Assembly (NCBI GenBank): GCA_030603365.1
Contig: JAUVXV010000016.1
Span: 26,274-90,273 of the forward strand
DNA: 64,000 nucleotides
Reading direction: 5' to 3'
Source: Candidatus Heimdallarchaeota archaeon
GTDB lineage: Archaea > Asgardarchaeota > Heimdallarchaeia > Heimdallarchaeales > Heimdallarchaeaceae
The translations under genes were made by a program, and so were the position numbers. A model generated the notes under the pieces. The model saw nothing but the letters and a program-made list of their open reading frames with translations, had not been told where the DNA came from and did no database searches. This document shows, one piece after another, positions 24,673 through 28,499 of this stretch (position 1 is its first letter; each line of letters starts with the position of its first letter).

Positions 24673-25785
24673 TCAAAATTCATAATTTATTTCTTCTTCA
24701 TTAGGAGGAAGAAATTCCTTAGCTATAATTATCTTCTGAGATTCCTTAAATTTTTCAGCAGTTTTAACGATATTTATTACTCTTGTTTCCAGTTCAGAGA
24801 TTAAGGGTTCCAAACTTTCAATGCTTTTCATAGATATAAAAAATTCAATTCCGAATAATGCTTTACTTCTTTTAATTTCCTCCTCCGAAATCAAATCTAT
24901 TTTATTAAGAACTCTAATCATAGGAACATTAAGAAATTCTTTTTCAATGTCTTCAAAAAGATTCAACTGTTCATCGGGTGTGATGACTGCATCTTTTGAT
25001 ATATCAAAGATAAAAACTATAATATCAGAAACATACCTTATTGAAGCTATACTTTGTCGTTCTATCATATTTCTCTCTCTAAAAGGCCTGTCCAATAAAC
25101 CAGGTGTATCTACAACTTGAACATTGGTAACAGCTAAATCTCTATGACCAAAGATAATTTGTTTGGTTGTAAACGGATATTCTGCTACCTCTGGTTTACC
25201 AGAAGAAATCTTTCTTACAAGAGATGATTTTCCCACATTGGGCGCACCTGCAATAACAATTGTTGGATATGTAACGTTAAAATCTGGGATGGTTTTCAGT
25301 TTTTTTATAGTTTTTCTTAGATAATTTACATCCCCTCTAGCTTTCTTAATTAGAGAAGCTATCCTACCACTACTTTCTTTTCTGATTTTTGCCATTTCTA
25401 AAGGATGATCAGATAGTCTTAATTTGGACATCTGTTCTTTTTCGATTTCCTTAATTTGGTTAGCGATACCATCTATTCGACCTAAAATCCTCCTAATCTG
25501 ATCTATACTTCCTATTAAATCGCAAAGTTCAATATAGAAAGGATGTATATTTTCAATCCAAGGAAATTGCTTTGTTATATCCAGTAACTTCTCTGATATC
25601 ACTTCTGCTAGTTTATAGATTCGATCTCTTTCAAAGGATGCTATTTTTTCTTCTCTAGTGCGTCTCTTTGAAGTTTTCATTCTCAGTTTTTTGACCTGTT
25701 TAAATGCAATGGAAAGTATCTCATCAACTGAAGGAACATACTTAACCTGTCTAAATGGATTTCCCTTATATTGCTTTTTCATCAC
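24673..25785 (-). CDS. Nog1-family GTPase
   Basis: GAPNVGKS, YPFTTK, DTPGLLDRP and NKID motifs, with a helical N-domain containing HPFY. Confidence 0.94.
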   Translation of the reverse strand: MMKKQYKGNPFRQVKYVPSVDEILSIAFKQVKKLRMKTSKRRTREEKIASFERDRIYKLAEVISEKLLDITKQFPWIENIHPFYIELCDLIGSIDQIRRILGRIDGIANQIKEIEKEQMSKLRLSDHPLEMAKIRKESSGRIASLIKKARGDVNYLRKTIKKLKTIPDFNVTYPTIVIAGAPNVGKSSLVRKISSGKPEVAEYPFTTKQIIFGHRDLAVTNVQVVDTPGLLDRPFRERNMIERQSIASIRYVSDIIVFIFDISKDAVITPDEQLNLFEDIEKEFLNVPMIRVLNKIDLISEEEIKRSKALFGIEFFISMKSIESLEPLISELETRVINIVKTAEKFKESQKIIIAKEFLPPNEEEINYEF

Positions 25786-26903
25786 ACATAATCACTTCCA
25801 ATGACTGATAAATCAATATCGTGATCAAAGTATTTGTCAATGTTCTTTATAACTTCCTTTTTTCTTCTATTATACCCTTCTTGGTATTTTAGAATCATTT
25901 CAATCAAATTTGGCTTACAATCAAGACCACAGATAAGATTACCTGATCTGCAGCCATTCTCTATTTTTTGTAGTTCCTCATCATCTTCTACAAAATACTT
26001 TTTGAACCAATCAAAAACTGTACATATCTCAGGATTTGCTCCAAGTTCTCTTTGTTCTTTAATGGTAGTTCTACCACCGGTAAGAGCTTTCATTATTTTC
26101 TTTTTGATGATTTCAGGTTCATCTCGTAGAAATACACATGTTTCTTCAGCTGATGAAGACATGGGACCACCTGTTAAACCTTTAAGGTATTGGATATAGA
26201 GAGAACCTGGCAATGTTATTTTCCGTTTTCTCGATATATCTCTTGTTAATCTCATATATACATCTTGATCTAATCCAATTGGTACAACAACTGGTAAATC
26301 ATGATCAATAGTAGGTTGAAGTATGTGTGCAGCTTGAATAAATGTATAATAACTTGTTCCAGCATTTTCTTCACCTGTAAGACCAAGTGCAGCTTTTATT
26401 GCGTTGTAGGTTTGATTTATTGAGAAAGAAAGTGCTAAATAATGTATTCTAGGAGTTATGCTTGATATATATGCATGTACATTTTCTGGGTTAAAACCTA
26501 TTGCAAAAATATCAATTGCATTTTCAATGGCCAATTTATATGTTCCTTCTAAAGAATCGACCTTTCGAAATACATACTTTTCATCATCTGAAAAAGGTAG
26601 AAAATATTTACAATTATACTTGTCTTGTAAATATCGTATTAAATCAAAGAGAATGAGATGACCAAAATGTAAATCATTAGACGGTCCTCTACCGCTTATA
26701 ATAGCAAAAGATTTATTCTTCTCAACCCTATCTAAGATTTTATCAAAATCTCTGTGGGCAAAAACAACACCCCTTCTAAAGAATAGGTGCTCTGTTCCAA
26801 TTCTAGGGAGTATTTTCTCTACTTTGGAAATGCCAAATTCCTTGAGTATTTGATTATAATCTTCTCTTTTTTCAATATCATGGGGTTCTGTACTTTGATT
26901 CAT
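25782..26903 (-). CDS. trpS: Tryptophanyl-tRNA synthetase (archaeal/eukaryotic type)
   Basis: FFRRGVVFAHRDF, GRGPS..LHFGH, DDEK, PIGLDQD and MSSS motifs. SD GAGGTG at 26914-26909. Confidence 0.96.
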   Translation of the reverse strand: MNQSTEPHDIEKREDYNQILKEFGISKVEKILPRIGTEHLFFRRGVVFAHRDFDKILDRVEKNKSFAIISGRGPSNDLHFGHLILFDLIRYLQDKYNCKYFLPFSDDEKYVFRKVDSLEGTYKLAIENAIDIFAIGFNPENVHAYISSITPRIHYLALSFSINQTYNAIKAALGLTGEENAGTSYYTFIQAAHILQPTIDHDLPVVVPIGLDQDVYMRLTRDISRKRKITLPGSLYIQYLKGLTGGPMSSSAEETCVFLRDEPEIIKKKIMKALTGGRTTIKEQRELGANPEICTVFDWFKKYFVEDDEELQKIENGCRSGNLICGLDCKPNLIEMILKYQEGYNRRKKEVIKNIDKYFDHDIDLSVIGSDYV

Positions 26904-26974
26904 TGTTACACCTCATAGAAAAAAAACTACAATTAAAAGCTTGATTATATGGTACTGGAATCACCCCTAATTCA

Positions 26975-27031
26975 CTATTTAGGGAAAACAAACCAAGAAA
27001 AGCTATTTCCAGTCCAAGTTACCACACTCAT
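26975..27031 (-). promoter_or_regulatory. Putative Trp-containing leader peptide (uORF) upstream of trpS
   Basis: MSVVTWTGNSFSWFVFPK* has 2 TGG codons in 18. TTATAAA lies 20 nt upstream of its ATG. Nested stems and a U8 tract precede the trpS SD. Confidence 0.45.
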
Positions 27032-27051
27032 TTATTTTTAAGAAAAAACTC

Positions 27052-27058
27052 TTTATAA
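27052..27058. promoter_or_regulatory. Putative bidirectional TATA box
   Basis: TTTATAA/TTATAAA lies 22 nt from the + strand ATG at 27081 and 20 nt from the - strand uORF ATG at 27031. Confidence 0.5.
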
Positions 27059-27080
27059 GAATATCGCCCAAAGTAAAACA

Positions 27081-28499
27081 ATGGAAAATTGGCTTGATAC
27101 TTATTTAAAAATGTTAAATTCTAAACCCTTTGCAATTGAGAAAAAAAAAGGCTCTCTAATAGGTTTCAATGTCAATATTGACAAAATTATTGCAATAAAC
27201 CCAGCAAAAATTTTACAAGTAATACCTACAGAAATAATTCCCAAGCTTGATTTCGATAAAACCCCTCCCTCTTCTGTTGAAACTCTAATTGATTTCTTCT
27301 CGTGTTTGTTTCATTCAATTAAACATGGAAAAGCTGATGAGGTCTTAACAGAATCTCAGAAATTATCAAATTGGATAGAAGAAGTTTTCGAGATTATGAA
27401 AGTAAAAATTGGCGGTCAAGCTGGAATTATAGCAAATCTATTTAGTAAACTAGGCTTGAAGAAAATTTTACTGAGTTTACCAGTTTTGGATAATTCTTTA
27501 ACCAGTTTATTAGAACCGAATATTTTGACAATAACAATGGATAAGTCTGGTCATTCTATTACCCCAATCTCCAAGATAAATAATACAGAAGACGAACCAA
27601 TTATTCATTATGTGTTTGAATTTACACCAGGAACTTATGTAATAGGTGATCAGAAGATTGTTTGTAAAAGAGATAATCGATTTATCTTATCTTATGATAA
27701 AATAAATACACAATTGAGGTTTAATGAAGGTTTTATGGATTATTGTGAGGAATTTCTTTCTGAATATTCCCTAGCAATAATCTCTGGATTCCATTTAATT
27801 AGTCAACAAGAAGGTTCCTCACAATCCTTCTATGATATAATCGCGCCTGTAGAAACGATGCTTAAAAAATGGAAGGTAACCAATCCTCTTCTCTACCTAC
27901 ATCTAGAAATTGCTTCTACAAAAGACGTTAAGCTGAGAAAAACTATAATTGAAGTTTTATTCCCTTTAGTTGATTCAATTGGTTTAAATGAACAAGAATT
28001 AATCTCATTTATTGAAATAATCAATCCCAAATTTGCAAGCGAATTAAGAAAAAACATGAGTTCTGTTATGTTTTTTAAAGCTTTAAATGAGATTTTACAA
28101 CACTATCCAAATATTAGAATCCATTTTCATTATCTTGGTTACTTCCTTATCCTTTCTAAACCAATTGATTACAAAAAAGCACAAATGAGAAAGCAAGGAC
28201 TTATTCTATCTTCGTTATTTGCTGCAAGAAACGCAGAAGGAAGAGAATTTACCACTTTCGGTGATATTCATAATGTTTCTTTAAATATAGCAATTAATGG
28301 ATATGAGGATTTGAAAAAGCTTCACAATTATTTACAATCTCACTTTTCAACAAAAGAAAGCCTACATGAAGATGGTTTATTATTCACCCCTTTCTTTTCT
28401 TTGATAGGCATACCTACTATAATTGTAGACAATCCTAAAGAATTGGTGGGTTTGGGCGATACTATCTCCTCTGTTTCTATTCTTTACGAGACTCAATAG
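27081..28499 (+). CDS. ADP-dependent glucokinase/phosphofructokinase
   Basis: GFNVNID, IGGQAGIIAN, RDNRFI, SIGLNEQEL and catalytic VGLGDTISS motifs. Confidence 0.93.
   Translation: MENWLDTYLKMLNSKPFAIEKKKGSLIGFNVNIDKIIAINPAKILQVIPTEIIPKLDFDKTPPSSVETLIDFFSCLFHSIKHGKADEVLTESQKLSNWIEEVFEIMKVKIGGQAGIIANLFSKLGLKKILLSLPVLDNSLTSLLEPNILTITMDKSGHSITPISKINNTEDEPIIHYVFEFTPGTYVIGDQKIVCKRDNRFILSYDKINTQLRFNEGFMDYCEEFLSEYSLAIISGFHLISQQEGSSQSFYDIIAPVETMLKKWKVTNPLLYLHLEIASTKDVKLRKTIIEVLFPLVDSIGLNEQELISFIEIINPKFASELRKNMSSVMFFKALNEILQHYPNIRIHFHYLGYFLILSKPIDYKKAQMRKQGLILSSLFAARNAEGREFTTFGDIHNVSLNIAINGYEDLKKLHNYLQSHFSTKESLHEDGLLFTPFFSLIGIPTIIVDNPKELVGLGDTISSVSILYETQ

Follow-up and report, generated by a model that had tools for sequence, protein, structure and literature searches.

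Within the 64,000-nucleotide (nt) window of Candidatus Heimdallarchaeota DNA studied here (the whole stretch analysed, to which coordinates refer unless another contig is named), the tryptophanyl-tRNA synthetase (TrpRS) gene trpS lies on the minus strand in a unit with nog1. It is separated by a 177-nt spacer from a divergent gene for an ADP-dependent phosphofructokinase (PFK)/glucokinase. The spacer holds the trpS leader, the subject of this report, behind a putative promoter (Table 1). An earlier note on this DNA had read the leader as a Trp-sensing transcription attenuator: the box TTATAAA (27058-27052), then 20 nt, an ATG at 27031 opening an 18-codon upstream open reading frame (uORF) with Trp at codons 6 and 13, an outer stem (27013-27007 with 26960-26954), an inner hairpin, a U8 tract, and the Shine–Dalgarno (SD) sequence GAGGTG before the trpS ATG at 26903. 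All of these elements exist on the minus strand where the note had placed them. Among relatives, one TGG codon and the outer pairing are kept, but the uORF itself is not, and the conserved reading frame is a different one.

We compared the region upstream of trpS in 23 genomes of the same genus, with TrpRS 72–91% identical, and more widely in the order (47 species genomes) and the class (83); the family of close TrpRS relatives includes Ca. Heimdallarchaeum endolithica and aukensis. Alignment column n is counted from G27029 = 1 and corresponds to window coordinate 27030 minus n. The same-genus genomes show little or no variation over a 21-nt core (27029-27009) and over the TATA box, which stands at a fixed distance from this core. 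The invariant block runs from the T-G at 27030/27029 through UUGGACUGG, apart from one free position and three others at which a few genomes differ. The leader measures 129–130 nt in 22 of the 23 genomes, and the core stays beside trpS in three genomes that have no adjacent PFK gene; in the 19 relatives where PFK does adjoin trpS, it is merely 38–64% identical. Elsewhere in the genome we found merely chance-like matches to the core, with 2–3 mismatches and mostly inside open reading frames (ORFs), which argues that it is not a regulon motif. Conservation starts at T-G, some 26 nt from the centre of the TATA box, as would fit a pyrimidine–purine initiator, so G27029 may be the first nucleotide of the RNA and is taken here as the predicted transcription start.

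The conserved frame in the core (frame 2) has UUG at column 13, UGG at columns 19–21, one arbitrary codon and a stop at columns 25–27. One codon past UGG, 22 of 23 same-genus leaders and both sister-genus leaders have a stop, which may be TAG, TGA or TAA; the codon in between is free to vary (AAA, TAT, CAA, CAT, CGA, AAG or AAT). Over all 36 trpS leaders, 30 have a stop, again of varying identity, 0–1 codon past UGG. This frame holds a single UGG and no run of cognate codons. At the predicted 5′ end of the RNA, an SD-like element complements, but for one bulge, the 16S 3′ end GAUCACCUCCU (GUGAUC variants in relatives match better) and stands 5 nt from UUG, equal to the GAGGUG-ATG spacing at trpS. 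UUG is the sole start for this mini-uORF in the present genome, and trpS itself apparently begins at UUG in several relatives. Family f3, in which TrpRS is 34–41% identical, has a related core with a frame-2 ATG 2–5 codons upstream in seven of eight leaders, usually preceded by GGTG or AGGTG as an SD, and a stop 0–1 codon past UGG in six of the eight. The mini-uORF thus looks translated, as a very short frame with a single Trp codon followed by a stop.

The most striking conserved feature, absent from the earlier note, is a second, stop-free frame that overlaps the mini-uORF and runs to the trpS start. In the present genome this long frame (CUU-GGA-CUG...) ends at TGA 26880-26878, 23 nt beyond the trpS ATG. 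From the core to the trpS start it is stop-free in 33 of 36 leaders (families f1, f2 and f3); the three exceptions carry one stop each, immediately ahead of the start codon in L053 and L055 and five codons upstream of it in L009. Over the same stretch the other two sense frames contain 2–6 and 0–7 stops, and the antisense frames 0–6. It spans 26–53 codons, or 70 in the leader of f2, and its end falls at −8 to +23 nt relative to the first nucleotide of the trpS start codon; one clade has an ATGA overlap there. Dinucleotide shuffles leave it open in 0.4–36% of trials per lineage; the product over about 15 diverged lineages would be near 1e-16 if these were independent, a figure inflated by relatedness. 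UGG occurs in none of 1,171 long-frame codons, compared with 5 and 23 in the other two frames. There is no conserved start: columns 18–20 are CUG in the present genome and AUG in some other lineages. These comparisons show a frame that appears to be kept open to the trpS start by selection, and such a frame points to recoding and translational coupling, not to classical attenuation. The putative TATA box with the core, the mini-uORF and the stop-free frame are all conserved, on these alignments, across an order of Heimdallarchaeia.

A common syntax recurs in the leaders of tyrS, pheS, ileS and thrS: GAA, a codon for the synthetase's own amino acid, 0–2 codons and a stop, together with an overlapping long frame to the gene start. 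The codon in the proposed sensor position is UGG before trpS, UAU before tyrS, UUY before pheS, AUU before ileS and ACA before thrS. The tyrS leader, present in 24 of 25 genomes, has its stop one codon past UAU in 22 of the 25 and a −1 frame of 28–38 codons that ends at −9 to +20. Its core nearly matches that of f3 trpS, except that UAU replaces UGG, and judged by this match the tyrS leader is homologous to the trpS leader of the sister family. The pheS leader (28 of 30 genomes) has a −1 frame of 29–32 codons, mostly with an ATGA overlap at its end; in the present genome it reads UUG-GAA-UUU-stop, with a 30-codon −1 frame, the ATGA overlap and a conserved U7 inside. Tracts of U6–U7 occur in the pheS, ileS and thrS leaders. 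The frames before ileS (25 of 30 genomes; 34–80 codons, ending at +5/+8 of the start) and thrS (20 of 25 genomes; 33–37 codons, ending at +1/+10) are in +1. The thrS frame is apparently not self-initiated, since its apparent ATG is GTG, GGG or GCG in relatives. Cognate codons are scarce in these frames as well: Ile codons make up 16 of 781 (2%) in the ileS long frame, against 140 of 779 (18%) and 51 of 782 (6.5%) in the other frames; Thr codons 2 of 668 (0.3%) before thrS, against 23 of 668 (3.4%) and 39 of 690 (5.7%); and Tyr codons 10 of 693 (1.4%) before tyrS, against 28 of 714 (3.9%) and 44 of 700 (6.3%). The direction of the long frame tracks context, being −1 at G-GAM-U, where the sensor codon begins with U (Trp, Tyr, Phe), and +1 at GAA-A, where it begins with A (Ile, Thr). 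The leuS gene of the present genome has no such long frame, and valS, metS, proS and others gave no clear case. A loose genome scan for UUGGAM, a codon, a stop and a long −1 frame gave 36 matches, among which only trpS, tyrS and pheS look real; the remaining matches appear to fall in upstream coding regions. The trpS leader seems to be one member of a Heimdallarchaeia family of synthetase leaders. No such leader precedes a second TyrRS-like PF00579 gene (G000 contig C1:136602-137534; 35% identical to the first over 144 amino acids).

We see about an even chance that the trpS leader is a ribosome-read sensor of charged tRNA-Trp, at which a starved ribosome slips −1, translates the leader and promotes trpS. 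When Trp-tRNA is ample, the ribosome would decode UGG, terminate one codon on and depart; the leader would fold, leaving trpS to basal expression from its own SD. Under scarcity of Trp-tRNA, the ribosome would pause with GAC occupying the P site and UGG in a vacant A site; the P-site tRNA would then slip back by one base (G-GAC to GGA), carrying translation on in the long frame across the leader. Ribosomes passing in this way would unfold the leader, protect the U-rich tract against premature termination of transcription and arrive at the trpS start by translational coupling, raising TrpRS. Such a loop would be homeostatic, because the signal is the product of TrpRS itself. Suppression of termination by ribosomes passing over the U-rich tract could keep part of the earlier note's idea alive. 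A slip of the P-site tRNA at an empty UGG is, we infer, the simplest mechanism that uses all the observed features. The SD-like element lies 8–9 nt upstream, and G-GAA (f3, tyrS, pheS) re-pairs with GGA better than G-GAC does, which re-pairs partly. In four f3 leaders a GC-rich hairpin with compensatory changes starts 5 nt past UGG, the classical position of a −1 frameshift stimulator. In E. coli, ribosomes are known to slip leftward at hungry codons (Gallant and Lindsley 1992, as cited in PMC8211752). The wider proposal, in which Asgard archaea control several synthetase genes by frameshifting at a hungry sense codon, with P-site tRNA-Glu or tRNA-Asp slipping −1 or +1 according to context into a stop-free frame coupled to the start, seems to us to fall slightly short of an even chance.

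Several observations weigh against slippage into the long frame. The slip site is no canonical X-XXY-YYZ heptamer, and tRNA-Asp re-pairs with GGA at two positions only, one of them a wobble. The same-genus mini-uORF would have to start at UUG behind an imperfect, bulged SD at the extreme predicted 5′ end, and in the present genome the long frame extends 23 nt into trpS, a long way for reinitiation. The downstream stimulatory hairpin is clear in f3 and weak in the present genome. Masking the first 36 nt, as a mimic of a stalled ribosome, gave no consistent shift in the predicted accessibility of the trpS SD. Phe codons are depleted mildly in the pheS long frame (37 of 731, against 61 of 759 and 94 of 755), and the combined long-frame probabilities are overstated since the genomes are related. 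The organisms are uncultured, and the proposal is built on sequences and predictions.

The fold of 27031-26904 in the trpS leader is not significantly better than shuffles (z = −0.92), and RNAalifold returned no consensus structure (−0.15 kcal/mol and 4 pairs). Minimum-free-energy (MFE) and duplex predictions place the first 22 nt, comprising the SD-like element and the mini-uORF, in a long irregular helix with columns ~66–93, whose partner strand differs between clades yet still pairs. In its P1 part, two CCA triplets lie opposite two UGG, and the CCA at 26958-26956 is invariant in the 23 genomes; the adjoining helix P0 is predicted in most clades, with differing partner sequences. At the central eight pairs, 86% of cells pair, compared with 18–41% for a slid partner strand. 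Two-sided covariation is absent, given the unvarying 5′ strand, and with duplex energies at z = 0 to −2.6 the support for the helix is moderate. As modelled, it would be able to sequester the mini-uORF. The outer stem of the earlier note is part of this pairing and is kept among relatives, albeit with no two-sided covariation. The stop-in-loop inner hairpin and the U8 tract are confined to the present genome or those nearest to it; other clades retain the 3′ arm UAGRG of this variable P2 region and have the 5′ arm elsewhere. We infer that U8 may act as an archaeal terminator. The tract is U-rich in all relatives, with U5 or longer in about half, and one clade has a small hairpin followed by a U-run. 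An Rfam cmscan of 26500-27500 with E up to 10 found no T-box and nothing in the intergenic region, and ARAGORN found no tRNA in the trpS leader. C/D-box, H/ACA, tRNA-like and anticodon-arm-mimic readings were dropped after visual checks against the alignment, since the boxes or loops that define them are missing or unconserved.

Each of the alternatives to the frameshift sensor leaves some conserved feature unexplained. The strongest of them, which we nonetheless consider unlikely, is that the stall suffices with no recoding: a ribosome paused at the mini-uORF UGG would keep the 5′ 22 nt out of P0/P1, and the freed 3′ strand would re-pair, following the logic of ermC and trpL, and alter termination at the U-tract or access to the trpS SD. 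The mini-uORF is indeed the 5′ arm of a conserved long-range helix, and the freed strand overlaps the small hairpin followed by a U-run in one clade, but no conserved pair of competing helices was found, and a stop-free, cognate-codon-free frame to the start codon would remain unaccounted for in five synthetase leaders. That missing pair also tells against the classical terminator/antiterminator attenuator of the earlier note, with its leaderless 18-codon uORF in frame 0, outer stem, inner hairpin and U8 terminator, which we now regard as highly improbable. Its elements exist, the genus has a frame-0 ATG, TTG or GTG near the predicted 5′ end, and a +1 slip from the first UGG would also reach the long frame. 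The uORF is nevertheless not a conserved unit. Among relatives its start triplet is ATG, TTG, CTG or AAG, with A, T or C free at the first base, AAG in one relative and ATG in just 4 of the first 20, so that the leaderless ATG is not conserved; in f3, frame 0 lacks a start codon in four of eight leaders. Its stop position is random, with lengths of 12–38 codons matching the expectation from a stop frequency of about 0.076 per codon. Trp codon 13 is kept in 10 of 20 relatives, and neither the second nor the third UGG of frame 0 is conserved. The first UGG, Trp codon 6, belongs to a UUG-GAM module that the tyrS and pheS leaders also carry (there as UUG-GAA), and so is incidental, not a Trp sensor. 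Finally, the fold on which attenuation would depend is no better than shuffles. What survives of the earlier note is its core idea, a translated Trp-codon leader that reports Trp-tRNA charging; conservation speaks for it, as do the sister leaders, in which the sensor codon is exchanged for one specifying the cognate amino acid. The anatomy given in the note was wrong, as the conserved ORF lies in another frame and uses the second UGG.

Two further explanations seem very improbable to us. One is a reinitiation cascade of opposite polarity, in which termination at the mini-uORF would be followed by restart at the CUG or AUG of the long frame and then by trpS translation, and in which ample Trp-tRNA would raise TrpRS and stalling would lower it. 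The stop lies 5–7 nt past that codon, for which f5 and part of f3 have AUG. As a start codon CUG is poor, yet A and C were exchanged there several times; the ileS and thrS long frames have no conserved start, the f5 short ORF ends far downstream, and depletion of cognate codons in the long frame argues for its translation under scarcity of that very tRNA. The other, at least as hard to credit, is that ribosomes do not read the core, which would instead be a protein or tRNA site (autogenous TrpRS binding, or T-box-like pairing of UGG with a CCA anticodon) or a DNA operator past the TATA box. Nucleotide invariance does extend over positions that would be synonymous, archaeal repressors usually bind at this position, and an invariant CCA lies 55 nt downstream. 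However, there is no Rfam or T-box match and no second genomic copy, and such a site leaves unexplained the stop of variable identity, the SD and ATG of f3, the open long frame and the codon swaps before tyrS, pheS, ileS and thrS.

Table 1 Features of the trpS locus and of the sister leaders (brackets enclose the proposed sensor codon; coordinates are those of the window unless a contig is given)
Feature	Position	Strand	Remarks
trpS	26903-25782	-	PF00579; ATG at 26903
nog1	25785-24673	-	4-nt overlap with trpS; trpS-nog1 unit 24673..26903
trpS SD GAGGTG and ATG	26901..26914	-	GAGGTG at 26914-26909
ADP-dependent PFK/glucokinase gene	ATG at 27081	+	divergent from trpS
Transcription factor B recognition element (BRE)-like CGATATTC and TATA box TTATAAAG	27051..27066	-	~22-27 nt upstream of conserved core
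SD-like element GAG-N-GUGG	27022..27029	-	predicted RNA 5′ end; invariant except N
Mini-uORF UUG-GAC-UGG-AAA-UAG (frame 2)	27003..27017	-	putative sensor Trp codon 27011-27009
Long frame (frame 1, -1 relative to mini-uORF)	26878..27018	-	46 sense codons, no stop, no UGG
18-codon uORF of the earlier note (frame 0)	26975..27031	-	start, stop position and second Trp codon not conserved
Helix P1, 5′ arm	27008..27017	-	the mini-uORF itself, includes ACUGGAA; predicted by MFE, RNAduplex
Helix P1, 3′ arm UUCCAGUACCA	26950..26960	-	two CCA opposite two UGG
Helix P0, 3′ arm	26937..26945	-	predicted to pair with SD-like 5′ end 27029-27021
Inner hairpin CCCUAA/UUAGGG	26965..26984	-	variable P2 region; present genome and closest kin
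U8 tract	26919..26926	-	within long frame
tyrS leader	G000 contig C14, ATG 306567, L184:250-370		AUG-(AUG)-CCC-UUG-GAA-[UAU]-NNN-stop
pheS alpha (PF01409) leader	G000 contig C1, ATG 509134, L215:110-237		UUG-GAA-[UUY]-(NNN)-stop
ileS leader	G000 contig C1, GTG 201599, L123	-	SD, AUG-GAU-CGC-GAA-[AUU]-CGC-stop
thrS leader	G000 contig C1, ATG 289965, L124		SD-led; ...GAA-[ACA], 1-2 codons, stop of varying identity
16S extra stretch	G000 contig C8:10098-10160, locus L081:1440-1560	-	~16 kb before window

No such motif was seen before trpS in family f4, in some f3 genomes or in two sister genera within the family of the present genome, nor before the second, f3-like TrpRS gene of G003 and G006. 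The trpS leaders of f5 and f6 (L099, L103-L115) carry a different conserved element, with GGAG, ATG codons and ...ACCAAUGG... or ...ACCAATGG..., followed by a hairpin (GCTAGTGG/CCACCAGC) and a U-run, and they have a −1 frame of 41–86 codons from an AUG that overlaps UGG. Ahead of the f7 gene for a second TrpRS type stands an SD-led ORF of 16 codons, two of them for Trp (L110, L116-L119, L121). It lies within a helix, and the 3′ strand of that helix, CCUCCUAG, can equally pair to the trpS SD; this predicted architecture is different from that of the leader in the window.

On the other side of the spacer, the ATG of the ADP-dependent PFK gene lies 22 nt from the same AT-rich TATA-like box read in the opposite direction (27052-27083), an arrangement kept in 20 genomes; this spacing is as expected for a putative leaderless mRNA from a shared bidirectional promoter. 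TrpRS has one W in 373 amino acids, compared with a genome mean of 1.1%; this scarcity is not significant, and we dropped it as support for Trp sensing. The 16S rRNA gene has about 32 nt extra between the conserved CCTGCGGA and GGATCACCTCCT near its 3′ end, which may be an expansion or a small insertion beside the anti-SD.

Ribosome-mediated sensing of amino acids by leader ORFs is textbook bacterial biology. A full-text literature search found no description of it in Archaea and nothing on archaeal synthetase leaders of this kind, and a 2016 review knew of no hungry-codon frameshifting that gives trans-frame proteins with a starvation-specific function (PMC5009743). If the frameshift sensor proves true, it would be the first natural regulatory use of hungry-codon frameshifting and the first regulatory frameshift in Archaea, found in the closest prokaryotic relatives of eukaryotes. 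It would be a compact, modular sensor of about 130 nt, retuned by swapping one codon; it would explain how synthetase levels are matched to tRNA charging and would give gene callers a rule for spotting such leaders.

Among known systems, leader-peptide attenuators share with the trpS leader an ORF with cognate codons, sensed by the ribosome, before the matching synthetase gene; they are known for E. coli pheST, where the leader is pheM, and predicted before Streptomyces trpS and leuS (PMC1262725). Theirs have several cognate codons and a terminator/antiterminator pair, whereas the trpS leader has a single one followed by a stop, lacks conserved competing hairpins and carries a long frame in addition. 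The T-box before trpS of Bacillota serves the same gene, responds to the same tRNA-Trp charging signal and also has a UGG triplet in the leader, but it binds the tRNA directly and needs a Stem I and a T-box sequence; the trpS leader has no Rfam match, and its features point to translation. The fucA1 frameshift of Saccharolobus solfataricus, the single programmed frameshift that a 2021 review of archaeal recoding lists as demonstrated in Archaea (PMC8211752), shows that archaeal ribosomes are capable of a −1 shift, including one by P-site slippage beside a slowly decoded codon; unlike the proposed trpS device, it joins two enzyme halves at a canonical heptamer and is not a sensor. The +1 frameshift of bacterial prfB (release factor 2) resembles the proposed device in its very short zero-frame ORF with a stop just past the shift site, its upstream SD-like element, its slow A-site codon that reports the activity of its own product and its homeostatic loop. 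In the archaeal trpS leader, by contrast, the hungry codon would be the sense codon UGG and the shift −1, and the new frame does not encode TrpRS, as the shifted frame of prfB encodes its product, but would only lead ribosomes to a separate trpS start. In ketolide-induced frameshifting within the ermCL leader, which can turn on ermC, ribosomes also leave the leader frame, translate the spacer and switch on the downstream gene (PMC5009743); there the trigger is an antibiotic in the exit tunnel, not tRNA charging, whereas the trpS leader keeps the whole frame open to the start.
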